Below are positions 2,261 to 34,529 of a DNA stretch of 39,178 nucleotides, one piece after another. Position 1 is the first letter of the stretch; each line of letters starts with the position of its first letter. The stretch is taken from the UHGV virus genome UHGV-0034768. One strand, 5' to 3'. Both the position numbers and the translations under genes were made by a program. The DNA is from a virus. The notes below the pieces were generated by a model. It did no database searches. It was not told where the DNA came from and saw nothing but the letters and a program-made list of their open reading frames with translations.

Positions 2261-4432
2261 ATGTTTGACCTTAAGAGTATCTGGGGTTCTGACATCGAGA
2301 CCAACGGTCTCCTTGATACAGTATCCCAGTTTCACTGTGGGGTCCTGATTAACGCCGAGTCGAATGAGACCCTTAAGTATGGGGTAGCTCCGATGGTCGG
2401 TATCGTCGGTGGCTTCAAAGAGTATGTTCATAAAGTGGAAGAGATTGCCGCATCTCCTGATGGCATGCTGGTATTCCACAACGGTATCAACTATGACGTA
2501 CCGGCTATCGACAAGCTGAAGCGTCTGTACTTTGGGAAACGTTTTAACTTCCCGAAACACAAGATGATTGATACCTTGGTGCTGGGCCGCTTGATGTATC
2601 CAAACATTAAGTTCTCAGACATGGGTGCTGTGAAAGCTGGTCGTCTGCCACCTCAGATGATGGGACGCCAGTCTCTTGAGGCTTGGGGCTATCGTCTTGG
2701 TGAGATGAAAGGTGAGTACAAGCACGATTACGTTGCCAAGTGCAAGGCTGAAGGTATCGAATATAAGGCTGGGGACGAATGGTTGTTCCCGTCTCAGGAG
2801 ATGCTGGACTATAACGTACAAGACGTTGTGGTCACACTGGCGTTGTTCAAGAAGTTCCTGACTGACAAGTATTACTTCCAGTCTGAACAGTTCGCTTTCG
2901 ACCAGATTTATGCTTTGCGTCTGGAACATGATGCTGCGTGGACCTGTGCAAAGATGGAACGTAACGGCTATCCGATGAACACCGAGATGGTCGAAGGCTT
3001 ATATCGTGAACTCACCGTCAAACGTGCAGAGTTGCTGGACAAGTTGCGTTCAACTTTCGGTAGCTGGTATGCACCGAAGGGAGGCAAGGAGTTCTTCAAG
3101 CACCCACGTACAGGCAAGGACCTTCCGAAGTATCCGCGAGTCGTGTATCCTAAGGTCGGTGGCATCTTTAAGAAGCCGAAGAACAAAGCTCAACGCTTAG
3201 GTCTTGAACCTTGTGAACGCGATACGCGAGACACGATGGAAGGAGCACCATTCACGCCAATAACTTACGTTGAGTTTAATCCGGGAAGCGGAGACCACTT
3301 AGCGAAAGTCCTGATGGAGCGTGGCTGGGAACCAGTGGACTTCACTGACACCGGGAAGCCTGTAGTCGATGACGAGACGTTAGAACACGTTAAGTTGCCA
3401 GACGCAGAGGCTCAGGCGTGCGTAGAGCTGGTCCGTGAGTATCTGGTAGTCCAGAAGCGCATAGGTCAAGCGGCTGAAGGTAAGAACGCATGGTTGAAAC
3501 TTGTAGGTCCAGACGGACGTATGCACGGTGCAATCAACCCATGCGGTGCAGTAACAGGACGTGCTACCCATAGTACACCAAACATGGCTCAGGTCCCGGC
3601 TAACGGTGCCCCATACGGTGAGACTTGCCGTGGTGCTTTCGGTGCAGCGTGGAACAAGAAGGACGGTAAGCCAGACCCTTGGATTCAAGTTGGTGTGGAT
3701 GCCTCAGGTCTTGAGCTTCGTTGTCTTGGGAACAGAGCGGCTCCGTTTGATGGTGGTGCCTATGCGAAGACTGTGGTCGAAGGTGATATACACTGGGCCA
3801 ATGCTGTCAACGCGGGTTTAGCACCTAACGTCCCACGCGATAAGTCGAACCACGACCATGAGGCTTTCCGTAACAACGCTAAGACGTTCATCTATGCGTT
3901 CCTGTATGGTGCAGGGGCCGCTAAGATTGGACTGATAGTCGGCGGTGGTAAGAAGGAAGGTTCGGCCTTGATGAAGAAATTCATTGAGGGTACACCAGCT
4001 ATCAAGGACCTGCGAGAGGCTGTGCAGAACACGCTCATCTCAGAGTCGAAGTGGGTAGATGGTGAGAACATCGTGAAATGGAAACGTCGCTGGCTGAAAG
4101 GTCTGGATGGTCGCCGCATTCACATCCGGTCGCCACACTCAGCACTGAACGCCTTACTTCAAGGTGATGGTGCGGTAGTCTGTAAGCACTGGATTGTTGA
4201 GACTGAGCGTATGCTCGAAGAGGCCGGGTATGTCCACGGCTGGGAAGGAGACTTTGCGTACATGGCATGGGTCCACGACGAATTGCAGATTGCAGCTCGG
4301 AACATGGAGATTGCCGAAGATATTCGCAGGATTGCTCAACTTGCTATGCGGAAGGTGGGTGAGTTCTATAACTTTAAATGTGTCCTTGATACCGAAGGTA
4401 AGATTGGACCAACGTGGAAGGAGTGTCACTAA
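2261..4432 (+). CDS. gp5: DNA polymerase (T7 gp5-like, family A, with 3'-5' exonuclease and thioredoxin-binding insert)
   Basis: Start set at MFDLKSIWGSDIETNGLL (aligns with T7 MIVSDIEANALL) with GGAGGA RBS; conserved blocks FHNGxxYDVPA, GAVTGRATH, KTFIYGFLYGAG, MAWVHDE; C-terminus ...GPTWKECH like T7. Confidence 0.95.
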   Translation: MFDLKSIWGSDIETNGLLDTVSQFHCGVLINAESNETLKYGVAPMVGIVGGFKEYVHKVEEIAASPDGMLVFHNGINYDVPAIDKLKRLYFGKRFNFPKHKMIDTLVLGRLMYPNIKFSDMGAVKAGRLPPQMMGRQSLEAWGYRLGEMKGEYKHDYVAKCKAEGIEYKAGDEWLFPSQEMLDYNVQDVVVTLALFKKFLTDKYYFQSEQFAFDQIYALRLEHDAAWTCAKMERNGYPMNTEMVEGLYRELTVKRAELLDKLRSTFGSWYAPKGGKEFFKHPRTGKDLPKYPRVVYPKVGGIFKKPKNKAQRLGLEPCERDTRDTMEGAPFTPITYVEFNPGSGDHLAKVLMERGWEPVDFTDTGKPVVDDETLEHVKLPDAEAQACVELVREYLVVQKRIGQAAEGKNAWLKLVGPDGRMHGAINPCGAVTGRATHSTPNMAQVPANGAPYGETCRGAFGAAWNKKDGKPDPWIQVGVDASGLELRCLGNRAAPFDGGAYAKTVVEGDIHWANAVNAGLAPNVPRDKSNHDHEAFRNNAKTFIYAFLYGAGAAKIGLIVGGGKKEGSALMKKFIEGTPAIKDLREAVQNTLISESKWVDGENIVKWKRRWLKGLDGRRIHIRSPHSALNALLQGDGAVVCKHWIVETERMLEEAGYVHGWEGDFAYMAWVHDELQIAARNMEIAEDIRRIAQLAMRKVGEFYNFKCVLDTEGKIGPTWKECH

Positions 4433-18030: not shown

Positions 18031-21000
18031 ATGGCGACTCGTGGTATTCGCAATAACAATCCGGGTAACATCCGGGTGAGTAAGGACCAATGGGAAGGAA
18101 TGACTGGAGATGATGGCTCATTCGTCGTCTTTGATAGTCCAGAGTCTGGCGTCCGAGCTTTAGGTAAAAACCTGCTGTCCTACGGTCGCCAAGGGTATGA
18201 CTCCATCGAGAAGATTATCAACAGATGGGCACCTCCTAACGAGAACGACACTAAGGCTTATATTGACTCAGTGGTGGCTGCAACTGGTATTCCAGCTACC
18301 CAGAGTCTCGACCTATCGAACCCTGACACCCTGTCTTCTCTGGCACAAGCTATCAGCTTCCATGAGACAGGCTCACGGTACGACCCTGAAGTCTATCAGA
18401 AGGGAGTCGCACGAGCACTCAACGGCATTAGCCCAAAGACTCCACCAGTAAGCTCTAACGTATTTGACGCACTCACGGAAGGATTAAAGGCGAAACCTAA
18501 AGTAGCTCTGGGTGAGAACCTTCCGACCGCTGCTGGTCTGAACATTGAGGGTCAAGCACCTGAAGCTCCAAACGAATCGTTCGGTGAGATGTTCTATAAG
18601 GCTACTGGCGATACCATGCAGGAACGAGAGGACCGCTCTACGTGGTTCGGTTTTGGGGCTGCTACAGAAGCTGAAGTGAAGAACTCTATGGTCGGAATGG
18701 CTATCCGCGCTGGTCAGACCGAGGACTCACTTGATGTCATTGGTGATGTGTTCAACCCGACCCGCTGGAACAACCATAAGTGGTCTCGTGATGAGCTGGA
18801 CCAGATTCGTAACTCTGGGGTTCTGCCTCAGTATTACGGAGTCATTACTGGTGGTTCTCCTCAGAATCTGACAGAGCTGATCAACTTGGCGCTGGAGAAC
18901 CAGAAGTTGGACCAAGAGAGGGCCAAGGCTGGGACTGGCGCTCAACTGGCGGCTGGTGTGATTGGTGCTGGCGTGGACCCTCTGACCTACGTTCCTATTG
19001 CTGGGCAGGTAGGAAAAGGTGGGAAGCTAATCAACAAAATGTTCACTGTGGCTGCTCAGTCTGGTGCTCTGTCTGGTGTGTCTGAGATGGCCCGTACCTC
19101 AGTGGCTGGTGGTGAGGCTCATGTGGCTGAAGCTATCCTTGGCGGTGCTCTCTTCGGTGGTGGCATGACTGCTATCGCTGATGGACTAGGCAGAGCCTTG
19201 GGCCGCAACACTAACGAGTTCGCTGGTCCAGCCACACGTCTGGAAGCCCGTGAGACTGCACGTAATGTTGATGGTCAGGACCTGTCGCGTATGCCAATCC
19301 GTGAAGGAGAGGAGACCTTTAGTCACCAAGGCGTTAAGTTCGCAGACGTTCCGAACGAGCCGGGTAGTGTACGACTGGAAGATGGTTCAATCCTGATTGG
19401 TGAGAACCCTCTGAACCCTAAGACACGTCAAGTCTTTGACGAAGTGATTGAGCCGGAACGTGCCTCTGCTGGTGTTAACCTTGGTGGACTTACCGAGATT
19501 GGCCTGAAGCTGCTTCGGTCTGAGAACCCTGAGATTCGTGGAGTAGCTGCTGACTTAGTGCGTTCACCGACTGGTATGCAGTCTGGGGCCTCAGGTAAAA
19601 TCGGGACAACTGCGTCAGACGTGTTCGAGAGACTTCGTGCTGTGGACCATCGGTTCTACAACGACATTGACGATGCTGTTACTGAGGCACTAAAGGACCC
19701 GTACTTCCAGACAGCATTCTGGCGAGACTCTGGCGCATTCCGTCAGGACATCTACCAGCGTGTGTCTATGGCTATCGAAGATGGTAGCGGAAACCTGAAG
19801 GCTGAACTGACTCCGGGAGAACTGAAAGTCTATGACCTACTGAAGAACCAGTTCGACGCCAAGCGTGAGATGATGGAGAACCCAGCTATGTTTGGTCGCC
19901 CAGACGCTAAGTCTATCTTTCCGGGTAGCCGCTTCAAGGGGACCTACGTCCCTCATGTGTATAGCAAACAGATGAAGGAGCTGTACACCAAGGAGCTTGG
20001 GAGTCCAGAGGCGTTGCAGGAGGCCATCAAGAAGTCATGGTTGACCAGCTATGCGTCTCGACCTGAAGTCAAGAAACGCGTGGACGAGGCACTCTTAGAG
20101 GCTGACCATACGTTGACTCCAGAGGGACTTGCTGCGGCGGTCGATAAATACGCCAACGATAAGGCTTACGGTATCTCTCACACCGAGCAGTTCGAGCGTT
20201 CATCCGTAATGGAAGAGAACATCAACGGTCTGGTGGGTCTGGAGAACAATAGTTTCCTTGAGGCCCGTAACCTGTTCGATAGTGATATGTCAATCGTCCT
20301 ACCTAACGGTCAGACCTTCAGTGTCAACAACCTGCGTGAGTGGGACATGGACAAGATTGTCCCGGCCTACAACCGTCGAGTTAATGGCGACATTGCTATC
20401 ATGGCTGGTACAGGAAAAACCACGAAGGAAATGAAGGACTTGGTTGAGACCATGATGAACAAGGCTGGTGATGACGGAAAGTTGAAAGGTGAGGTATCTA
20501 CCTTACGTGACACCTTGAAGATTCTCACTGGTCGTGCTCGACGTGATGGTGCTGACGATGCTGCCTTCGCTACCGTGATGCGCACAATGACAGACCTATC
20601 GTTCTTCGCTAAGAATGCCTATATGGGTGTTCAGAACTTAACGGAGATTGGTGGTATGCTGGCTCGTGGCAACGTTCGTGCGCTGCTACATGGAGTCCCT
20701 ATGTTCCGTGACCTAGCCTTCCGTAACAAGAAGGTCGGGGCATCGGAGATTAAGGACCTGCATAATGTTATCTTCGGTAAAGAATTGGATGACTCAATCC
20801 GTCCGTCTAAACAGGATGTCATTGACCGTCTGCGGTCTTACAGTGACCTAGGTCGTGGTACGGCTACAGCTCTGGGGACTGCCAAGTATTACACGGGTGA
20901 ACTTGCAGTACGCTCTCCGTTCACTAAAGTCCTCAACGGTACGACCAACTACCTATTAGATGCTGGACGTCAGGGATTCCTGTCTGACATCGTGGAGCAT

Positions 21001-21918
21001 AGTCTGACTGGCAGTAAGCGTAAGTTCGATGACCGCTGGCTGAAGACCGCTGGTATCTCTGACGAGCAGTGGAAGGGCATTAAGTCCCTAATCCGTGAGT
21101 CAGTGACTCGTGGGCCAGACGGGAAGTACATCATCAAGGATAAGAAGGCGTTCAGTCAGGACCCAAGGGCTATGGACCTGTGGCGCATGGGTGACACCAT
21201 AGCTGACGAAACGTTACTCCGTCCTCATAAGCTGTCAAACATGGACGCCAAGGCTTATGGCCCTCTCGCTAAGACTGTCCTTCAGTTTAAGAACTTCGTC
21301 ATCAAGTCCATCAATGGGCGAACCATGCGAACCTTCTACAACGCCACGAAGAACAACCGAGCGATGGACGCTGCCTTGTCCACTGTGATGTCTATGGGTC
21401 TCGCTGGTATCTACTACATGGCTCAAGCTCACGTCAAGGCTTACGCTATGCAGGATGGTCGAGACCGTGAATACCTCAAGCAAGCTCTTGACCCGACAAT
21501 GATTGGTTATGCGGCTCTGTCCCGTAGTTCACATCTGGGTGGTCCACTTGGGGTAGCTAACATTCTGGGTGGCATCGCTGGGTATGAGGACACTAAGATG
21601 CTCCGTTCGTCTATCCTACCCCGGTCGCCTACAGAGAAGCCTGAACGTGCCATCGCGTACGGTGCAACTACAAGTGGACCTGTGATGAATGTTGTTGGTA
21701 ACTTCTTGGAGCAGGTTCCAGCTTTCGGATATGCTGCTAACGTTGGCGCTTCGGCTTACAACTTGGCTGGCTACCTCAATGCTGATACTCGTGTCAACGA
21801 GCGTGACTACATGACCGGGATGTATAATACGTTCCGTGAACTGGTTCCGAACGACCCAATTACCCAGAAGCTGTTGCTTGGAACGTTTGAGGAGCAAGGT
21901 ATCCACATCAAGGACTAA
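18031..21918 (+). CDS. gp16: internal virion protein D with N-terminal lytic transglycosylase domain (T7 gp16-like)
   Basis: 1295 aa; N-terminus MATRGIRNNNPGNIR... typical of gp16 SLT domain; size and synteny. Confidence 0.9.
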   Translation: MATRGIRNNNPGNIRVSKDQWEGMTGDDGSFVVFDSPESGVRALGKNLLSYGRQGYDSIEKIINRWAPPNENDTKAYIDSVVAATGIPATQSLDLSNPDTLSSLAQAISFHETGSRYDPEVYQKGVARALNGISPKTPPVSSNVFDALTEGLKAKPKVALGENLPTAAGLNIEGQAPEAPNESFGEMFYKATGDTMQEREDRSTWFGFGAATEAEVKNSMVGMAIRAGQTEDSLDVIGDVFNPTRWNNHKWSRDELDQIRNSGVLPQYYGVITGGSPQNLTELINLALENQKLDQERAKAGTGAQLAAGVIGAGVDPLTYVPIAGQVGKGGKLINKMFTVAAQSGALSGVSEMARTSVAGGEAHVAEAILGGALFGGGMTAIADGLGRALGRNTNEFAGPATRLEARETARNVDGQDLSRMPIREGEETFSHQGVKFADVPNEPGSVRLEDGSILIGENPLNPKTRQVFDEVIEPERASAGVNLGGLTEIGLKLLRSENPEIRGVAADLVRSPTGMQSGASGKIGTTASDVFERLRAVDHRFYNDIDDAVTEALKDPYFQTAFWRDSGAFRQDIYQRVSMAIEDGSGNLKAELTPGELKVYDLLKNQFDAKREMMENPAMFGRPDAKSIFPGSRFKGTYVPHVYSKQMKELYTKELGSPEALQEAIKKSWLTSYASRPEVKKRVDEALLEADHTLTPEGLAAAVDKYANDKAYGISHTEQFERSSVMEENINGLVGLENNSFLEARNLFDSDMSIVLPNGQTFSVNNLREWDMDKIVPAYNRRVNGDIAIMAGTGKTTKEMKDLVETMMNKAGDDGKLKGEVSTLRDTLKILTGRARRDGADDAAFATVMRTMTDLSFFAKNAYMGVQNLTEIGGMLARGNVRALLHGVPMFRDLAFRNKKVGASEIKDLHNVIFGKELDDSIRPSKQDVIDRLRSYSDLGRGTATALGTAKYYTGELAVRSPFTKVLNGTTNYLLDAGRQGFLSDIVEHSLTGSKRKFDDRWLKTAGISDEQWKGIKSLIRESVTRGPDGKYIIKDKKAFSQDPRAMDLWRMGDTIADETLLRPHKLSNMDAKAYGPLAKTVLQFKNFVIKSINGRTMRTFYNATKNNRAMDAALSTVMSMGLAGIYYMAQAHVKAYAMQDGRDREYLKQALDPTMIGYAALSRSSHLGGPLGVANILGGIAGYEDTKMLRSSILPRSPTEKPERAIAYGATTSGPVMNVVGNFLEQVPAFGYAANVGASAYNLAGYLNADTRVNERDYMTGMYNTFRELVPNDPITQKLLLGTFEEQGIHIKD

Positions 21919-21936
21919 ACTATCACTATAGGAAAC
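21914..21936 (+). promoter_or_regulatory. phage RNAP promoter (phi17 position), ACTAAACTATCACTATAGGAAAC
   Basis: Consensus match; +1 G at 21931. Confidence 0.8.
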
Positions 21937-21982
21937 TGGAGGCGCTACCATAGGTCTCCGTTTAAATCACAAAGGAGGCATA

Positions 21983-24247
21983 ATGTCCACGATTACACAA
22001 TTCCCTTCAGGAAACACCAAGTACAGGATTGAGTTCGACTACCTAGCCAGAACGTTTGTTGTTGTTACGCTGGTGAATAGCTCTAACCCTACCCTAAACC
22101 GTGTACTGGAAGTTGGTCGAGATTACCGATTCCTTAATCCAACGATGATTGAGATGTTGGTTGACCAATCAGGTTTCGACATCGTTCGTATTCACCGTCA
22201 GACTGGAACTGACTTAGTGGTAGACTTCAGGAATGGCTCAGTGTTGACAGCTAGTGACCTGACCAATGCAGAGCTTCAGGCTATCCATATTGCAGAAGAA
22301 GGTCGAGACCAAACTGTTGACTTAGCGAAGGAATATGCCGATGCTGCTGGTAACTCTGCTGGAAACGCTAAGGATAGCGAGGACGAAGCACGACGAATCG
22401 CTGAGAGTATCAAGGCAGCTGGTCTAATTGGTTATATTACCCGTCGCTCCTTCGAGAAAGGCTTCAACGTTACAACATGGAACGAGGCCCTGCTATGGGA
22501 AGAGGATGGTGATTATTACCGCTGGGATGGTACGCTTCCAAAGAACGTTCCTGCTGGTTCAACTCCTGAATCATCTGGCGGTATTGGGCTGGGTGCGTGG
22601 GTTAGTGTTGGAGATGCCACATTGCGCACGGAATTAAATCTGATAACTAGATACTTTTCGACCGCTACTCAATTACCTGGAATACGAGCTAAAATAGGGC
22701 AGAGGATTATAACACTTGGTTATTACTCGGCAGGCGATGGTGGTGGTGCTGAATATATTGTAACATCAGGGGTGCCAAATCAAGACTACTCTGATGCAGG
22801 ATCGATTGCTATCTCAGATAATTCTTTCGCAAAGCTCGTCCAAAAACCACAATTTGACCTTAAACAGTTCGGAGTAAAACCATCTGACGCGTCTGCGGCA
22901 GCGGATAATGATGTATTTATCGCTCAGGCAATAATGCGTTCACGCTTCGGGTTCTGCAAAATAACTATATCTGACGTAGTATACCACAAAAAGCCTTTAG
23001 TGTTCGATTACTATAACCACATGGAAGGTAATACTATTGGCGGCGATGCAAGTTACACTCCGCGATTCCGAAAAATCGATAACACGACAAGCGGAATTGC
23101 ACCACTGGCGTACCCTAATGTCAGTGATACCGTGAACTATGATGTGGACGCTGGAATAATTTTGAAGCGACAGAATGCGGCAACGGATTATTGTCGAGGC
23201 GTTGTTTTAAAAGGCTTTCTCTTAGAGTCAATGGCGAAGTCAGCATGGGCAATTTATGCCCCCCATGCCGCAGATTTCGATATTGATATAGATAGCCGTG
23301 GGTTCAACGGTGGAATCCGTGGGAATGTTAATTTCCTTGGTAGGTACTCTGGACGCCATGTGGGGCTTGGTGAGAATGCGGTAGACCCTACGCTTGCTAT
23401 AGGTCTATGGTTTAGTCATTTCTCAACCATCCTCGACTGCGGTAATTCAGTTACTTTCCGCAATTCATTTAACGGATTCAACAGAGCCATACAGGCTGAG
23501 TATTTTGGGAACGGAATACTTGACCGTTGTACCTTCGAAAACATCAAAAAGCCGGTTGTTGGCGCCCCAACTACGTTCGGCATTAGCGCAACAAACAGTT
23601 GGTTTAGTGGTCAAATATCATGCGAGAGTTCATCAACATGTATCATACGTGCTGGCAATAACGCGAACTTCGATATTACCCTTAGTGCGGTATTTCATGT
23701 CACGCAAGATGATATTGCGGAGGGGATTATCCATGTTCTTAGCGGTGGCAGGGTTAACCTGCGCCCTTCCACAATTCTTGCTGATTTGCCAGATACAAAA
23801 ATCATTAATGATAATGGAGGTTATCTAGATATTGCTGCAAATACCAGAGCAGCAAATATTGTTTATTCCAATCATGATACTTACAGATTCAAAGACAGAA
23901 CTATTGGCTTTGGTCAGACTGCGGCAACTACAAAAACAAGTTTCTCTTCTGGTGAAGAGATTACATTTTCACTACTAAACGGAACGCCAAAGGCGAATCT
24001 ATCTGGCGGAACGATCCAGTTTAACTCTCCGGGCCTGATTAAAATCACCGTACAGGGGAGGGGTATAACATCAGGATCACTTACTTTTGGGATAAATGGG
24101 GCATCTTCAGAGAGCGTGAGTCAGGGACAGCAGGTTTCTATGGTTGTCGGAGTAACGTCCGGTGACATTCTTAACCTGAAGGCGGCCTCCTCGCTGACGT
24201 TGGGATCTGCAGGAGGGGTGCGGGTACTTCTTGAGCCTGTGTTTTAA
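21983..24247 (+). CDS. gp17: tail fibre/tailspike: T7 gp17-like N-terminal anchor fused to a probable beta-helix polysaccharide depolymerase
   Basis: N-terminal ~150 aa resembles T7 gp17 ([27 protein letters not shown]); remainder is G/S/T/N-rich with pectate-lyase-like motifs ([32 protein letters not shown]); DNA visibly AT-richer from about 22630. Confidence 0.85.
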
Positions 24248-24251
24248 ACTT

Positions 24252-24278
24252 AAACCCGCTTCGGTGGGGTTATTTTTA
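24252..24278 (+). terminator. intrinsic terminator-like hairpin with TTCG loop and U-run
   Basis: AACCCGC-TTCG-GTGGGGTT followed by ATTTTTA, immediately after the tail fibre stop. Confidence 0.55.
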
Positions 24279-24375
24279 TCATCAGAAGGTTGTGGAGGTA
24301 GAGGCTAACTACACGCTGACCAACGTATGGTAACAACTTTGGGTCACGGACGACCCGCTTTAAACTGGAGGTTTT

Positions 24376-24570
24376 ATGATTGAGTTAGACTTCAAGAATG
24401 AGGTCCTTAAAGCCTCTCCTATCGTCGGGACCGCTGCGGCTGATGGTGCCAGTCGGTTCTTCTTTGGACTCACACTGAACGAATGGTTCTACGTTGCGGC
24501 TATCGCGTACACCGTTGTCCAAATTGGTGTGCTAGTCTACAAAACGATTAAAGGAGGTGGTAAAACATGA
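24376..24570 (+). CDS. gp17.5: class II holin (T7 gp17.5-like)
   Basis: 64 aa; near-identity to T7 holin over KA.PIVGT..AD...R.FFGL.LNEWFYVAAIAYTVVQIG. Confidence 0.9.
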   Translation: MIELDFKNEVLKASPIVGTAAADGASRFFFGLTLNEWFYVAAIAYTVVQIGVLVYKTIKGGGKT

Positions 24571-24830
24571 CGCAGATTGACTTAGAGAAGTTCCTCTTAA
24601 TGTTAGATACTGAACGTGCTCGACTCATGCTGCAAGACCTGCGGGATGACTCTAAGCGTTCACCTCAGCTTTACAACGCCATTGAGAAGCTACTGGCTCG
24701 TCACAACTTCGTGCTAAGCAAGGTGTCTGTTGACGAGAAGACGCTCGCTGATATGGAGGCCCTGAACGCAGAGTACGATAAGGTGCTCTCAGCTACGGAA
24801 GATAATGACACTGGATACGGAGTGCAGTAA
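24567..24830 (+). CDS. gp18: terminase small subunit (T7 gp18-like)
   Basis: 87 aa (T7 gp18 is 89 aa), RBS AAAGGAGG, ATGA overlap with holin stop. Confidence 0.85.
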   Translation: MTQIDLEKFLLMLDTERARLMLQDLRDDSKRSPQLYNAIEKLLARHNFVLSKVSVDEKTLADMEALNAEYDKVLSATEDNDTGYGVQ

Positions 24831-24940
24831 ATCTCTTAAGTGTTAGACTCAAGGTCCTTACTATATGTAGGGGCCTTTATGGTTAACACTAACTAGTGGA
24901 GGCGACTCTACGTGAAATCTGATAAACCGGGAGGGCAACT

Positions 24941-25405
24941 ATGCTCGAATTTTTAAAGAGAGCGGCTCCGTGGTTACTTGCAGCAGTGATGTTTGCTGGT
25001 GGCTACCACACCGCTAACAATAAGTGGGAGGCTAAGGTCAATGCAGAATACACCTCGAATCTTAAGGCATCGGAAGATACAAGGCTTGCTGTCCAAGCTG
25101 AAGTCAACAAAGTGTCCAAGCGGTTTCAGGACGAAATGTCCTCGCTGGAAGGCAGCACTGATAGGATTATTGCTGACCTTCAGTCTGACAATAAGCGGCT
25201 GCGCATCCGAGTCAAACCTACGAGTGGAACCACGCAAAGTGACGGTCGATGCGTCATTGATGGTTACGCCGAACTTGACGAACGAGATGCTAAACGTCTT
25301 ATCGCCATCGGATTAAAAGGAGACTCGTGGATTAAGGCCCTTCAAGATACTGTTCGTAAACTTCAACAAGACCGGGGTAGCTATGGGAATTATAATAACA
25401 ACTGA
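24941..25405 (+). CDS. gp18.5: i-spanin Rz (T7 gp18.5-like)
   Basis: 154 aa; N-terminal TM segment; matches T7 gp18.5 (MLEFL, LEGSTDRII.DL.SDNKRLR.RVK, RDAKR, ALQDT.R.LQ). Confidence 0.9.
   Translation: MLEFLKRAAPWLLAAVMFAGGYHTANNKWEAKVNAEYTSNLKASEDTRLAVQAEVNKVSKRFQDEMSSLEGSTDRIIADLQSDNKRLRIRVKPTSGTTQSDGRCVIDGYAELDERDAKRLIAIGLKGDSWIKALQDTVRKLQQDRGSYGNYNNN
25041..25316 (+). CDS. gp18.7: o-spanin Rz1 (T7 gp18.7-like), embedded in the +1 frame of Rz
   Basis: Embedded ORF with basic N-region, hydrophobic stretch ALIGLLLTFSLTISG and lipobox Cys (LTISGC); ATG at 25041 is 100 nt into Rz, as in T7; start not certain. Confidence 0.6.
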   Translation: MQNTPRILRHRKIQGLLSKLKSTKCPSGFRTKCPRWKAALIGLLLTFSLTISGCASESNLRVEPRKVTVDASLMVTPNLTNEMLNVLSPSD

Positions 25406-26168
25406 GACAGACGTGGTGTGGCACTACACTACAGGAGACCCTAGTGGTCGAAAGAACGCATCCGGGCATCTCCAAGAAGGTACTATAGAAGTTGTGGTTC
25501 CAGAGAATGCGCTGACAGCACGCCTGTACGTGACTGGAGGTCTGACGGTAAGCAAAGACTTCACGTCTACTTTCGGCTGGCCTATAACTGTAGGTGGAGT
25601 GACCGTGGAGAGACTCTGGGTCGATTCCGATGGCGAGACAGTCCTGAGTGTCTCATCTACCACTGGTAACGGTGTAGTAAAGATTGAGTACGACTGGGAG
25701 AAGACCAGACCTATTGACCACGCTGAATACACACTAGACGTCCGTAACTGGACAGGAACTAAGGAGTGTCCCGCTGGTGTGTTCACTGAGATTGTTAGTC
25801 TTCCGTGGGTAAAAGTCATAGATGCGAACGTAGTGTCAATCACAGGGTCTACCCTCAAGTTCCCGGCTATGGATGGTCTAAGCACATTGGTCTTCGCTGT
25901 GAGACTTACTGGTACGTATCCTACCCAATCCGAGCACACATGGTCTGTCATTATTCGAAGACCTACAGGTCAGGTACTATCAGTAGTACAGGAGGCTGAC
26001 AACAAGGTATCGTTCTCCACTCGTGAGACTACTATTCACAGCTACATTGCAGACATAGACGACCCGTTCGTGACCTCTGGTGTGGTGATTGGTGTGGAGA
26101 ATACCTCATCTCAGGCCCTGACTTTAACAGCCATAACGTTGCGTATAGAGCGCATATTTAACGTATAA
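25383..26168 (+). CDS. hypothetical 261-aa beta-rich protein inserted between the lysis cassette and terminase large subunit
   Basis: Long ORF with T/V/S/G-rich composition; overlaps the Rz end by 23 nt; no counterpart in T7 where gene 19 follows 18.5 directly; function unknown. Confidence 0.7.
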   Translation: MGIIITTETDVVWHYTTGDPSGRKNASGHLQEGTIEVVVPENALTARLYVTGGLTVSKDFTSTFGWPITVGGVTVERLWVDSDGETVLSVSSTTGNGVVKIEYDWEKTRPIDHAEYTLDVRNWTGTKECPAGVFTEIVSLPWVKVIDANVVSITGSTLKFPAMDGLSTLVFAVRLTGTYPTQSEHTWSVIIRRPTGQVLSVVQEADNKVSFSTRETTIHSYIADIDDPFVTSGVVIGVENTSSQALTLTAITLRIERIFNV

Positions 26169-26180
26169 GGAGGTGACGCA

Positions 26181-27944
26181 TTGAGTAAAGACTTAGTGGC
26201 GCGTCAGGCGCTAATGACTGCCCGTATGAAGGCAGACTTCGTGTTCTTCCTGTTCGTCCTGTGGAAAGCTCTGTCACTCCCAGTCCCGACTCGCTGTCAG
26301 ATTGACATGGCGAAGAAACTATCGGCTGGGGACAACAGGCGTTTCATCCTACAGGCGTTCCGTGGTATCGGGAAGTCCTTCATTACGTGTGCCTTCGTGG
26401 TATGGAAACTATGGAACAACCCAGACTTGAAGTTCATGATTGTGTCGGCCTCAAAGGAGCGAGCCGATGCTAACTCCATCTTCATCAAGCGCATCATCGA
26501 CCTCATGCCTCAGCTTCAGGAACTCAAACCTAAGCAGGGACAGCGAGATGCGGTTATCAGCTTCGACGTTGGACCAGCCAAGCCAGACCACTCACCCTCG
26601 GTTAAGTCCGTTGGTATCACTGGTCAGTTGACTGGTAGTCGTGCTGACATCCTGATTGCCGATGACGTGGAGGTTCCTAACAACTCTGCGACTCAGGCTG
26701 CGCGAGATCGACTTTCAGAGCTTGTGAAAGAGTTCGACGCTATCCTGAAGCCGGGAGGTACAATCATCTATCTGGGTACTCCTCAGAACGAGATGACCCT
26801 ATATCGTGAGCTGGAAGGCCGTGGGTACACCACTACTATCTGGCCAGCTCGTTATCCACGCGACAGGAAAGACTGGCAGTCTTACGGCGACCGTCTGGCA
26901 CCGATGCTTCAGGCAGAGCTAGAAGAGGACCCTGAGTCATTCTACTGGCGTCCTACCGATGAGGTACGATTCGATGATACGGACCTGAAGGAACGTGAGC
27001 TATCCTATGGTAAAGCTGGCTTCGCTCTACAGTTCATGCTTAACCCGAACCTGAGTGATGCTGAGAAGTACCCTCTGAAGCTCCGTGACCTTATCGTAGC
27101 AGACTTGGACCCAGCGTCCAGCCCAATGGTATACCAATGGTTGCCAAACCCTCAGAACAAGCGTGAGGACGTTCCTAACGTTGGACTCATGGGTGACTCA
27201 TACCACACGTATCAGACTGTAGGTTCTGCCTTCAGCTCATACACCCAGAAGATTCTGGTCATTGACCCTAGTGGTCGTGGTAAGGATGAAACTGGATATG
27301 CGGTACTGTATCAACTCAACGGCTACATCTTCGCTATGGAAGTTGGTGGTATGCGTGGAGGGTATGAAGACTCTACGCTGGAAGCATTGGCTAAGATTGG
27401 TCGTAAGTGGAAGGTCAACGAATACGTCATTGAGGGTAACTTCGGTGATGGTATGTACCTTGAGCTATTCAAGCCTGTAGCGGCCCGTATCCATCCTGCG
27501 GCTGTAACTGAAGTGAAGAGTAAGGGTCAGAAAGAACTCCGCATCTGTGACGTTCTGGAGCCTATCATGGGGTCTCACAGACTTATTGTTAACGCTGCTG
27601 CTATCGTCCAAGACTACCAGACAGCTGCCGACAAGGATGGTGTGCGTAACCCTATCTACTCTCTCTTCTACCAGATGACCCGTATCTCTCGTGAACGTGG
27701 AGCCTTGGCACACGATGACAGACTTGATGCGCTGGCTATAGGTGTACAGTTCTTCGTTGAGTCTATGGCTAAGGATGCCAACAAAGGTGAACGTGAAGTC
27801 ACTGAGGAGTGGCTTGAGGAACAGATGGAGAACCCACGGAAAGGCTTCGAGTCCATCCACACTGAGTTCTGGGACAATGGGGTCCGGGTAACTCACGATA
27901 CGGACGACGAGCTGGGACTAGGGTCATACGTTACGTTCCACTAG
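26181..27944 (+). CDS. gp19: terminase large subunit (T7 gp19-like)
   Basis: 587 aa; TTG start with AAGGAGGTGA RBS; blocks [68 protein letters not shown] match T7 gp19. Confidence 0.95.
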
Positions 27945-28038
27945 CTGAATGAATAACTATAGGTGAAAGCTGCATGAATACGCAGTTAGTACCCTATAGT
28001 TACTACCAGTATAACCTACTGTTTTACAAGGAGTTTGG

Positions 28039-28061
28039 ACTTAACTATCACTATAGGGAAG
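28039..28061 (+). promoter_or_regulatory. phage RNAP promoter (phiOR position), ACTTAACTATCACTATAGGGAAG
   Basis: Consensus match; +1 G at 28056; downstream of terminase near the genome right end, as T7 phiOR. Confidence 0.8.
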
Positions 28062-28241
28062 ACCCCAGGTTACTTATAGTATTACTGTAGTGAATATACA
28101 TATGCAGACTTTATGCAAGACCTTAGGAGGCAGACTCCGAGTTCTTACCTAAGGCTTGCACCGATGGAAGGAGGGTGATATTAATCATAATCCCTCCAAT
28201 ACAGATAGTCACCGACCATAGATACAGGAGGTATGTAGCAT

Positions 28242-28400
28242 ATGGCAAAGACCAAAGCTGTACTTAAAGCTCTGGCGACCAATCGAGCTACATACAGGTT
28301 TCTTGCTGCTGTTCTACTTGCTGCTGGCGTTACTGCTGGAAGTCAGTGGGTCGGGTGGGTCGAGACTCTCGTATGTTCTCTGGTGTCTCAGTGTAATTAA
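28242..28400 (+). CDS. small hydrophobic protein (positional analogue of T7 gene 19.5)
   Basis: 52-aa ORF not in the supplied track (under 60 aa); strong RBS ACAGGAGG 8 nt upstream; predicted TM-like segment. Confidence 0.5.
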   Translation: MAKTKAVLKALATNRATYRFLAAVLLAAGVTAGSQWVGWVETLVCSLVSQCN

Positions 28401-28559
28401 CGCAATCATGGTAACGATTCACGAGCGGAAGACCTAAGGTCAGTACGTGGATAAAGACTCACTCTACTGACCTTAGCTACTGTAGTCAAGGACTTTAGGT
28501 AACACCTTAAGAGAAGCTCACTTAGGGTCATCCTACTTATTGGTCTATCCTAGTGTCGC

Positions 28560-28605
28560 CTGACCTACGGTCCTTGACCTACAGTGGCTGTGGCCTACAG
28601 TAGTG
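28560..28605. repeat. short direct repeats (GACCTACGG / CCTACAGT x3) to the right of the putative terminal repeat
   Basis: Read directly; analogous to the T7 CCTAAAG-type repeat arrays flanking the terminal repeat. Confidence 0.6.
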
Positions 28606-28639
28606 ACGATGAGTTTTGGACCAAAAGTTTGAGACCACA

Positions 28640-28835
28640 TCTCACAGTTCAAGAACTTCAAGTCTCCCCATAGGCCCTCTTTCAGTCCAGACCAAAGGCC
28701 CTCCCCAGTCTATCATAAGGTTGGACCTATGGTCAAGACGTTAGGTCGACGATAGGTCTAGGCTATGGCTGGAGGTCAGACGATAGGTAGGGACTATTGG
28801 TTGTCTCCGAGTCTCTATCTGTATACCATAGGTCT
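28640..28835. repeat. candidate direct terminal repeat region (single collapsed copy); probable physical left end near 28640
   Basis: TCTCACAGT...CTCCCCATAGG at 28640 and ...TGTCTCCGAGTCTCTATCTGTATACCATAGGTCTC resemble the T7 left-end terminal repeat (TCTCACAGTGTACGG...CCCCCATAGGGGG ... TGTCTCTCTGTGTCCCTATCTGTTACAGTCTCC). Confidence 0.4.
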
Positions 28836-28839
28836 CAAC

Positions 28840-28926
28840 AACCTACAGTCCTACAGCCTACAGTCTAACAACCTACAGTCACCGACCATCGGTAAAGCCA
28901 TTACCTACAGTCAAAAGACCTACAGT
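28840..28926. repeat. array of about six CCTACAGT short direct repeats
   Basis: Copies at 28842, 28850, 28857, 28872, 28904, 28919; counterpart of the T7 CCTAAAG array between the terminal repeat and promoter A1. Confidence 0.7.
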
Positions 28927-29039
28927 TAATAGACACAAAGCTATAGACTTAAGGTCTAAGACATGTTAGTCAAAGACTATATCCTCTTAGTCACTATGGG
29001 GCCGACGATAGCTTAATCGATATTATTTAAGATTACCTA

Positions 29040-29068
29040 TTGACTATAGGTCTAGACTATGGCCTAAT
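29040..29068 (+). promoter_or_regulatory. candidate host sigma70 early promoter (A1-like)
   Basis: TTGACT at 29040-29045, then a 17-nt spacer and a weak -10 (CCTAAT); collinear with T7 A1 (TTGACTTAAAGTCTAACCTATAGGATACT). Confidence 0.4.
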
Positions 29069-29180
29069 AGCTTCCGTCAACACGACACGGCAACAACCGG
29101 ATAGTGAAGACGCCGGGTCATCCCGGTTAAGTAGACAGCCTGATAAGTCATACGAACAACAGGCAGATGACAGAAAGCAG

Positions 29181-29210
29181 TTGACAAGATGTACCGACTT
29201 AAAGTAGTAT
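29181..29210 (+). promoter_or_regulatory. candidate host sigma70 early promoter (A3-like)
   Basis: TTGACA at 29181-29186, 18-nt spacer, TAGTAT at 29205-29210; flanking sequence CCGGATA.GTAGACAGCCTGATAAGTC closely matches the T7 A2/A3 region. Confidence 0.5.
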
Positions 29211-29398
29211 GTACCACATCGAAACAACAGTGATGACCAACACTGAAATGGTCTACCTGAAGTCCTCTGACTGAAGGGAATGCTCTTTAACAATCTGGAT
29301 AAAACTCTTAATGTGCGCCGATAGCGACTAACTACAGGGCCTTTGAGTATACATCTGAAGGCCCTGACTGATAGTCACTAACTTAAAGGATGGACACT

Positions 29399-29644
29399 AT
29401 GAAACACTTAAGCACAATCACTAATCGCAATGAAATATTCGTGAACACTAAAGGTTATGCGTGGATTCAGCTTAAAGAGCTGACAGGAGCGCGTCACCGT
29501 GTGGTAGTGCGCAAGGTCTCAAGCAAGCCGTTCAGCAACTACAGCGTAGATACTGTGCGTATAGACAACGAGACCTACCTGATAGACTCGCAGATAACCG
29601 TGCGTCCTACAGCGGGCGTCCCAGCTCCTTATTTCGCTAACTGA
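29399..29644 (+). CDS. hypothetical early protein (first gene after the early promoters, upstream of ocr)
   Basis: 82-aa ORF (second ATG chosen, AAAGGA 7 nt upstream); preceded by a structured leader; no recognisable domain. Confidence 0.6.
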   Translation: MKHLSTITNRNEIFVNTKGYAWIQLKELTGARHRVVVRKVSSKPFSNYSVDTVRIDNETYLIDSQITVRPTAGVPAPYFAN

Positions 29645-33973: not shown

Positions 33974-34453
33974 ATGTTCGGTAAGTCAAAACTTAAAGCA
34001 CAAATCAAAGAGTTGAGCATGAAGGTGGCATACTTGGAGCGAGTCGTAACGGTCCGGGATAAGGACAACGAGAGGCTGAAGGTTAAACTTGCTGAATCAG
34101 AGCGTAAGCGCCTGACACCACCAGCGGCTGTAACTGTCAAGCGTATGGTAGGCATCAAGTTCAAGGCACTGTTCAACGGGCTGTACCAACCGACTGAGTT
34201 CAAGACAGGGCCTGGTAGCTGCGGGAAGAACGTTAAGCATTTCACCATATCGAAGACTGAACGCACCATTACCATCCACCAGCACCACGTAGACGGGTCT
34301 CAGAAAGACTTTGAGTACCGACTGAGCGACATCGATGGTCGCATCCAGTATGACTACGAGCGGGTTAAGGTCTATGGCGAGGAGGCAGAGCAGGAACGTA
34401 TAGTACAAGCCTTACGCAACAGACAACGATTATACCCTAAACTATCACTATAG
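33974..34453 (+). CDS. hypothetical protein (159 aa; N-terminal heptad-like helical region)
   Basis: ORF with GAAGAGG RBS; no T7 counterpart between gene 1 and gene 1.1; function unknown. Confidence 0.6.
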   Translation: MFGKSKLKAQIKELSMKVAYLERVVTVRDKDNERLKVKLAESERKRLTPPAAVTVKRMVGIKFKALFNGLYQPTEFKTGPGSCGKNVKHFTISKTERTITIHQHHVDGSQKDFEYRLSDIDGRIQYDYERVKVYGEEAEQERIVQALRNRQRLYPKLSL

Positions 34454-34458
34454 GATTA
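34436..34458 (+). promoter_or_regulatory. phage RNAP promoter (phi1.1 position), CCTAAACTATCACTATAGGATTA
   Basis: Consensus match; +1 G at 34453; overlaps the stop of the upstream ORF. Confidence 0.8.
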
Positions 34459-34529
34459 GACTCAAGGTCATGACTCAAAGTCGTGGCCTTCATGATTAAC
34501 CCTATAACCTAAACAACTGGAGCTACAAC

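Follow-up and report, generated by a model that had tools for sequence, protein, structure and literature searches.

Gene 17 of the viral genome UHGV-0034768 raises the question of where the distal part of a phage tailspike came from and which surface glycan it recognizes. The genome was analyzed as one stretch of 39,178 nucleotides (nt), hereafter the window, the first 25 kb of which align over ~91-93% to the Kayfunaviruses CLB_P1, 6925 and PE3-1 at ~94% identity. These phages are K1F-like podoviruses of the T7 type; the window is a K1F-like (T7-type) Kayfunavirus coliphage, and its open reading frame (ORF) 21983-24247 on the plus strand is gene 17, encoding a tailspike, or receptor-binding protein (RBP), of 754 amino acids (aa) with an ATG start. 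These limits and this length, proposed by a first-pass annotation that had also described the product as a mosaic tail fibre, proved exact on checking, and an identical protein is encoded on metagenomic contigs of ~39 kb with matching neighbour genes. The reading we favour, with a probability of roughly 0.65, is that the protein is a modular tailspike, in which a conserved anchor carries an imported receptor-binding and enzymatic cassette, O-antigen-cleaving in function and recombined between two joints.

The mosaic structure was borne out by sequence comparison. Nucleotides 1 to ~646 of the gene are common to 162 phages at 95-97% identity (megablast), none of which covers the remainder of the gene in that search, and backbone homology picks up again at 24252-24284, directly past the stop codon. 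The 5′ boundary was located in a four-way alignment of the window with K1F, CLB_P1 and an unrelated siphovirus-like contig (L003). Identity of the window to K1F and CLB_P1 is 98-100% up to position 22560, 72-80% over 22561-22629 and at the random level (32-39%) from 22630 on, while identity to L003 climbs from 48% to 86-87% across the same span. This switch of partner places the crossover in the final ~70 nt of the region coding for Tail_spike_N (crossover zone 22561-22629), within a coding motif at 22513-22629 (plus strand) that is conserved among unrelated phage backbones and represents the putative 5′ exchange joint. The joint corresponds, with the logos not matched base by base, to motifs 1/2 of Pas, Latka, Fieseler and Briers (2023; PMC10408124), who described 5′ motifs and downstream terminator motifs as proposed recombination hot spots, conserved across lytic genera including Kayfunavirus and found only in lytic genera, and who delineated the anchor at aa 221-227. 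The cassette would then have been inserted by homologous recombination between the 22513-22629 joint and a second joint at 24250-24287, formed by a terminator and ATCATCAGAA.

The part of the protein upstream of the 5′ joint is, as judged by its family matches, a genus-conserved anchor of two domains (aa 1-~215), in which a helical linker joins a T7 gp17-type domain to a Tail_spike_N domain. The T7 gp17-type tail-attachment domain with its linker occupies aa 1-150 (21983-22432, plus strand) and belongs to Pfam family PF03906, which was recognized on aa 10-115 with 58.3 bits at a cut-off of 25.2; T7 gp17 itself (PDB 7boz) is alignable over aa 6-116 only (E 3e-16). The Tail_spike_N domain (compare CBA120 TSP1 and G7C gp66) follows at aa 155-211 (22445-22615, plus strand) and is a member of PF18668 at 72.4 bits against a cut-off of 25. 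As this stretch retains 95-97% DNA identity to other Kayfunaviruses, it lies within the genus-conserved anchor. Consistently, chain A of PDB 9vvr (9vvr_A), a solved Kayfunavirus-type tail spike of 843 aa with 18 chains of identical sequence, is near-identical to aa 1-219 and unrelated beyond that. The T7-like N-terminus had thus been seen correctly in the earlier reading, and only its extent of ~150 residues was too short, since the conserved part reaches aa ~215 and includes PF18668. This anchor would plug the spike, presumably trimeric by analogy with homologues and present in six copies per virion, into the tail.

At the opposite end the 3′ exchange joint (24250-24287, plus strand; terminator scan) consists of a UUCG-loop terminator hairpin, a U-run and the conserved ATCATCAGAA. 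The window holds a degraded copy: its hairpin CCCGC-UUCG-GUGGG with the U-run (24255-24268) has a folding energy of -9.8 kcal/mol (z = -2.6), the terminator being weakened by the loss of one base of the stem as compared with -14.7 to -17.8 kcal/mol in relatives. Homology of gene 17 to L003 and to another contig, L010, extends 40 nt beyond the stop codon, across the hairpin. The element AAAACCCCGCTTCGGCGGGGTTA.TTTTATCATCAGAA is also located 3′ of unrelated receptor modules in CLB_P1 and PDP351P3, though not in K1F, and, besides these two phages, L003 and L010, occurs on 12 IMG/VR contigs. Where the upstream frame of the latter is readable, the element lies 18-40 nt 3′ of the stop codon of a tailspike gene, and the tailspikes so encoded are 623-851 aa long with differing C-termini. 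On this pattern of conservation the terminator is not incidental: it belongs to the exchanged cassette, whose conserved 3′ joint it forms. Together with the phi17-type promoter at 21914-21937, it makes gene 17 a self-contained promoter-to-terminator transcription unit. The UUCG-loop terminator and the 128-nt spacer noted at first pass are both real. The spacer (24248-24375, plus strand) separates gene 17 from the holin gene; its part from ~24278 onward belongs to the backbone and is 97-100% identical in Kayfunaviruses, and since the spacer contains neither a phage promoter nor a significant fold (z +0.59), it appears to be merely a conserved backbone leader. Rfam gave no match over 21800-24700. 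On either strand the scan also flagged a terminator-like palindrome at 23943-23960 (TCTCTTC-TGGT-GAAGAGA, a perfect 7-bp stem); it is internal to the tailspike ORF and was treated as probably a chance occurrence. A further stretch past the terminator, GGTATTGAATCATCG(A/G)A, is present in CLB_P1 (L007 ~2990-3010), in L010 after 5633, in the IMG/VR loci L014-L025 and, more generally, in metagenomic donor-like contigs and many viral contigs of ~44-48 kb. It is missing from the window, so that the 3′ joint seems to be longer in some phages.

The origin of the module was approached through its homologues. For aa 217-754, 23 homologues of 47-89% identity came from a search of 5.8 billion proteins; when 1.84 billion representatives (50%-identity clusters) were searched exhaustively with a profile, only 9 reached E<=1e-30, some of them fragments. 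At E<=0.001 the profile matches numbered 4527, most of them not reaching beyond profile position ~200-260; what thousands of tailspikes have in common is only the adapter together with the initial ~85-150 module residues (a GYYxxGDGGG cap and an FGVK...ND..I..A N-cap). The N-termini of the homologues vary (PF18668, the P22 head-binding domain PF09008, and others), as do their carriers. The module stands behind the P22 head-binding domain in P22-like prophages of E. coli and E. albertii, behind an epsilon15-type N-terminus on a temperate podovirus-like contig, where it adjoins an Acyl_transf_3 gene, behind an SU10-like podovirus adapter, and, on a siphovirus-like contig that also encodes ERF and single-stranded DNA-binding protein (SSB), behind a Tail_spike_N adapter. 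The sole cultured phage with the module is a 124-kb Aeromonas phage (53% identity), the only match in a tblastn search of 50,697 phage genomes. In the Aeromonas phage vB_AceP_PAc (L002 5001-6611) the module has 50% GC within a locus of 36.7% GC; being GC-rich relative to its surroundings, the reverse of the situation in the window, it looks foreign there too. At the DNA level the module recurs with the same 3′ flank on unrelated backbones at 79.9-88% identity. From these relationships, the module is evidently drawn from a pool shared by unrelated enterobacterial phages.

Base composition bears on the same question. The GC content of nucleotides 22631-24247 is 44.5%, while the remainder of the window has 50.4%; relative to non-overlapping windows of equal length this gives z = -3.7. 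The GC content at third codon positions (GC3) of the receptor module, 0.387, is the lowest of 33 coding segments (0.47-0.66 in other genes, 0.44 in the anchor), and its index resembling the codon adaptation index (0.547) is the second lowest. The first-pass annotation had placed the onset of an AT-rich region at about 22630, with GC in the low 40s percent by eye; GC is indeed not uniform across the gene, but the figure was a slight overstatement, as local GC is ~40% only in 23600-24100 and returns to ~50% in the final ~150 nt. The richness in certain residues ascribed to the C-terminal module was confirmed, Gly, Asn, Ser and Thr making up 33.8% of it as compared with 24.1% of the backbone proteins. 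This enrichment, and the equally GC-poor receptor modules of other Kayfunaviruses, would suit an explanation in which the low GC and the scarcity of matches reflect fast vertical divergence, or simply the amino acid composition, of a native Kayfunavirus gene. That explanation is effectively refuted. The GC shortfall is greatest at third codon positions, mostly synonymous (0.387 against ~0.55), with GC content at second positions (GC2) unchanged, and is therefore not a by-product of the residue composition; identity to relatives drops from ~98% to the random level inside ~70 nt; and the recurrence of the module together with its 3′ flank on unrelated backbones, described above, is likewise at odds with vertical descent.

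Exchange of the module being preferred to divergence, its age is a separate matter. The same dip is seen in the receptor modules of K1F (GC 0.448, GC3 0.38), CLB_P1 gp17.1 (0.445 and 0.42) and PDP351P3 (0.452 and 0.40), and the enteric relatives of the module have a GC of 0.40-0.44 and a GC3 of 0.29-0.37 irrespective of backbone. Low GC as proof of recent transfer was consequently rejected; it is a property of the shared receptor-module pool and no clock. The nearest DNA relatives of the module, two short metagenomic contigs, are 88% identical to it. Thus, of the recent horizontal acquisition originally suggested, the horizontal part stands on the mosaic structure and the shared pool, and the word "recent" does not, given the 88% identity of the nearest relative and the equal AT-richness of other modules. 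A second low-GC stretch in the window, ~27859-29475 (44.65%), is nearly as low as the module; it follows the terminase gene and presumably belongs to the genome end or early region.

The fold of the module was modelled with AlphaFold on the 23-sequence alignment (monomer; predicted local distance difference test score, pLDDT, 92.7; predicted template modelling score, pTM, 0.86), and Foldseek comparisons with PDB and BFVD are concordant with the result. The model opens with a small beta sub-domain and a capping helix, continues through a long region of beta structure only and closes with a beta domain at the C-terminus. The first part, delimited with DSSP on the AlphaFold2 model, comprises aa 217-319 (22631-22939, plus strand), with the GYYxxGDGGGxxY motif, the FGVKPSD...NDxFIAQAI stretch and the N-cap helix. 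The body of the module, aa 326-631 (22958-23875, plus strand), is a predicted right-handed parallel beta-helix of the pectin-lyase-like fold with a putative glycan-binding or catalytic groove. The last part, aa 636-754 (23888-24244, plus strand), is modelled as a beta-sandwich, probably a C1q/TNF-like jelly-roll that may serve as a trimer cap or an additional glycan-binding domain. In Foldseek, ~133 columns match the C-terminal (C1q/TNF-like) domain of BclA with a target-normalized TM-score of 0.6-0.65, a match that probably belongs to the C-terminal ~120 residues. In the cassette (aa 217-754) a small cap domain would thus precede the right-handed parallel beta-helix, with the jelly-roll at the C-terminus. 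Beyond this predicted fold we infer the trimeric state, catalysis, hydrolase chemistry and the exact glycan.

Catalysis is suggested by the conservation of acidic residues. A 24-sequence alignment that reaches down to 26% identity shows no substitution at D389 or E548 and hardly any at D387, D431 or E519, and in the model D387/D389, D431, E519 and E548 sit on successive coils of the helix. This arrangement suits a glycosidase groove, which it suggests rather than proves; cleavage would proceed via the groove carboxylates D389 and E548, possibly with D387, D431 and E519. A beta-helix that only binds glycan would agree with the fact that sequence comparison recognized no catalytic family or motif in the module. 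We consider such a non-catalytic role quite improbable, because the carboxylates are retained over so wide a range of divergence and essentially all near structural neighbours are active depolymerases. The cassette most likely both binds and cleaves a surface polysaccharide, which would allow the virion to reach the outer membrane.

The nature of this polysaccharide was addressed through the genomic company of the homologues. A prophage tailspike with the module was found in 6 of 5426 complete E. coli genomes. One of the carriers, PM4-5, has a P22-like prophage at tRNA-Arg and an O-antigen cluster with rfbBDAC, a 3,4-ketoisomerase, an acyltransferase, an aminotransferase, a flippase and several glycosyltransferases, which we take to imply that the O-unit is of the Wzx/Wzy type and contains L-rhamnose together with either Fuc3NAc or Qui3NAc. 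The serogroup-specific wzx-wzy region of PM4-5 likewise occurs in 6 of the 5426 genomes, and five genomes carry both the module and the cluster (hypergeometric P = 9e-16, assuming independent genomes). Tailspike and O-antigen protein clusters have accession series in common, those of E. albertii assemblies and of E. coli P0299438.10. Strains sharing one O-antigen cluster harbour two tailspike variants with a mutual identity of just 63%, and the window module, 64-76% identical to both variants, is bracketed by them, which favours the PM4-5-type O-antigen as the receptor. The best-supported substrate would accordingly be a rare O-antigen of the Wzx/Wzy type, whose cluster encodes dTDP-L-rhamnose and dTDP-3-acetamido-3,6-dideoxyhexose. 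What is new in these data points to a link between the module family and one rare O-antigen cluster, and with it to a testable host prediction.

The module could instead be a depolymerase of capsule (K-antigen) or exopolysaccharide, like the K1F endosialidase or tailspikes of Acinetobacter and Klebsiella phages, to whose ranks the closest structural neighbours belong. We regard this as unlikely. A fold likeness at 15% identity is uninformative on the substrate, the homologues reside on P22-like and epsilon15-like temperate phages, the tailspikes of which are mostly O-serogroup-specific, one homologue lies beside the Acyl_transf_3 gene, presumably for an O-antigen acetyltransferase, and the homologues tightly co-occur with one rare O-antigen gene cluster. 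No likeness to the K1F-type endosialidase (GH58) was found: identity to K1F past 22630 is random, K1F is absent from the tblastn matches, and Pfam gave no match to Peptidase_S74, the C-terminal intramolecular chaperone of such endosialidases. Of the two substrates left open in the first-pass annotation, capsule or O-antigen, the evidence from genomic company points to the O-antigen as the better supported and makes the capsule the less likely.

An O8 receptor, to which the label O8:H25 of the source strain of one homologue and an O8 RBP subtype of Pas et al. (2023) gave a lead, was rejected on module and cluster evidence. That subtype corresponds to G7C RBP1/MK-13 and is unlike the window module, and the gnd-his interval of PM4-5 holds a Wzx/Wzy cluster and no cluster of the ABC-transporter type. 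One partial glycosyltransferase in the PM4-5 cluster is labelled O177, which we treat as a lead only.

Several observations weigh against an O-antigen-cleaving cassette. As regards the enzyme, Pfam recognized no family on aa 220-754, including no pectate-lyase or beta-helix family (Pectate_lyase_3, Beta_helix), even at E <= 1, nor any enzymatic family on distant relatives of the module; a sequence-profile search of PDB matched the adapter region only and nothing in the helix; and the matching PHROG 32960 is annotated "unknown function". The closest structural neighbours, capsule depolymerases of Acinetobacter phages, share only 15-16% identity with the module, so that their depolymerase chemistry is not transferable. 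The pectate-lyase-like character assigned earlier to the distal ~600 aa is therefore upheld by the predicted fold and not by sequence families. As regards the receptor, the O-antigen association derives from prophage homologues 64-76% identical to the module and not from this phage; the P value overstates independence, as the five co-occurring genomes may be phylogenetically related; the tailspike-carrying genome JCKP02 lacks the cluster (megablast), there being one exception in each direction; and the homologue from the strain labelled O8:H25 is at variance with the cluster of PM4-5, which is not O8-like. We propose only tentatively that the module represents an uncharacterized glycanase family whose specificity is for one rare O-antigen, common to E. 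coli and E. albertii and built with rhamnose and a 3-acetamido-3,6-dideoxyhexose.

Comparison with known systems delimits what is specific to this locus. Receptor-module exchange in Kayfunaviruses, flanking motifs included, is already published, and gene 17 of the window has the attributes of a Kayfunavirus gp17 with a swappable receptor-binding domain, namely a conserved anchor with a divergent module, gp16 and holin genes as flanks and both joint motifs. It is like the gp17 RBPs of K1F, CLB_P1, Ro45lw, Ro103C3lw and Penshu1 in the anchor (95-97% DNA identity), the gp16-holin position, the approximate breakpoint and the joints. In contrast to the gp17 RBPs analyzed by Pas et al. (2023), its module is missing from all 162 anchor-sharing records and, as noted, from all phages of the collection bar the one from Aeromonas; the module therefore appears to be a subtype outside that study. 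The prophage tailspikes of P22-like (Lederbergvirus) and epsilon15-like (Uetakevirus) phages in E. coli and E. albertii, annotated merely as "phage tailspike" or "head-binding domain-containing protein", possess the same module at 64-76% identity but other adapters (PF09008 and the epsilon15 type) and no terminator joint, the downstream sequence in L001 and L012 being different; this agrees with the restriction of the motifs to lytic genera (Pas et al., 2023). Belisarius gp86 (PDB 24qi) and AS12 gp42 (PDB 6eu4) of Acinetobacter phages, 15-16% identical to the module, differ in host, show no detectable sequence-level relation to it and act on capsule, AS12 gp42 being K27-specific. The O157-specific CBA120 TSP2 (PDB 5w6p/6w4q; 14% identity) is part of a branched four-spike complex of a myovirus and has another specificity. 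In CLB_P1 (L007 669-2947) the tailspike is split into a gp17 anchor of 325 aa and a gp17.1 receptor protein of 430 aa, followed by the same terminator, which represents an alternative architecture at the gene 17 locus.

The surroundings of gene 17 are those of the backbone. Upstream lies the gp16 gene (18031-21918), the end of which is overlapped by a phi17-like promoter of the phage RNA polymerase (21914-21937, plus strand; ACTAAACTATCACTATAGGAAACT), read from the sequence; the consensus CTAAACTATCACTATAGG(G/A)A, to which it conforms, occurs 10 times in the window. A ribosome-binding site AAGGAGG (21972-21978, plus strand), likewise read directly, lies 4 nt 5′ of the ATG. Downstream follows gene 17.5 (24376-24570, plus strand), a class II holin according to PF10746 on an identical contig and the holin annotation in relatives. 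A 61-nt direct repeat with TTAGACTCAAGGTC (24831-24891 and 34444-34504, 75% identity) lies 5′ of gene 18.5 and just past the promoter at 34436; its short core recurs after other promoters (2195, 9982), and the repeat could represent either a common 5′ leader or a site of RNA processing. Further downstream, an ORF of 261 aa (25383-26168, plus strand) follows an Rz-like gene (24941-25405), with which it overlaps by 23 nt, and precedes the large terminase gene. It has no Pfam match, belongs to PHROG 17779 ("unknown function") and is 94.6% identical in Providencia phage EPr2; its position is taken in CLB_P1 by the 263-aa gp18.8 ("putative protease") and in K1F by nothing. Its C-terminal ~145 aa also occur in Escherichia and Salmonella phages of ~72 kb and in Aeromonas phages, in one of which the protein is annotated as collagen-like.

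Swapping of modules on a conserved anchor is an established route of host-serotype change in T7-like and other phages, and the present locus adds no new principle to it. Its practical value lies in a receptor module not known before in the genus, whose fold is modelled with confidence and whose joints are both mapped to within tens of bases. The O-antigen link provides a concrete host prediction for an uncultured phage and a candidate serogroup-specific enzyme for typing or for host-range engineering of phages and tailocins. Should the proposed glycanase family be real, this metagenomic Kayfunavirus would be a lytic phage for the corresponding serogroup, and the cassette from promoter to terminator, with both conserved joints, would move as one unit among at least five phage backbones.

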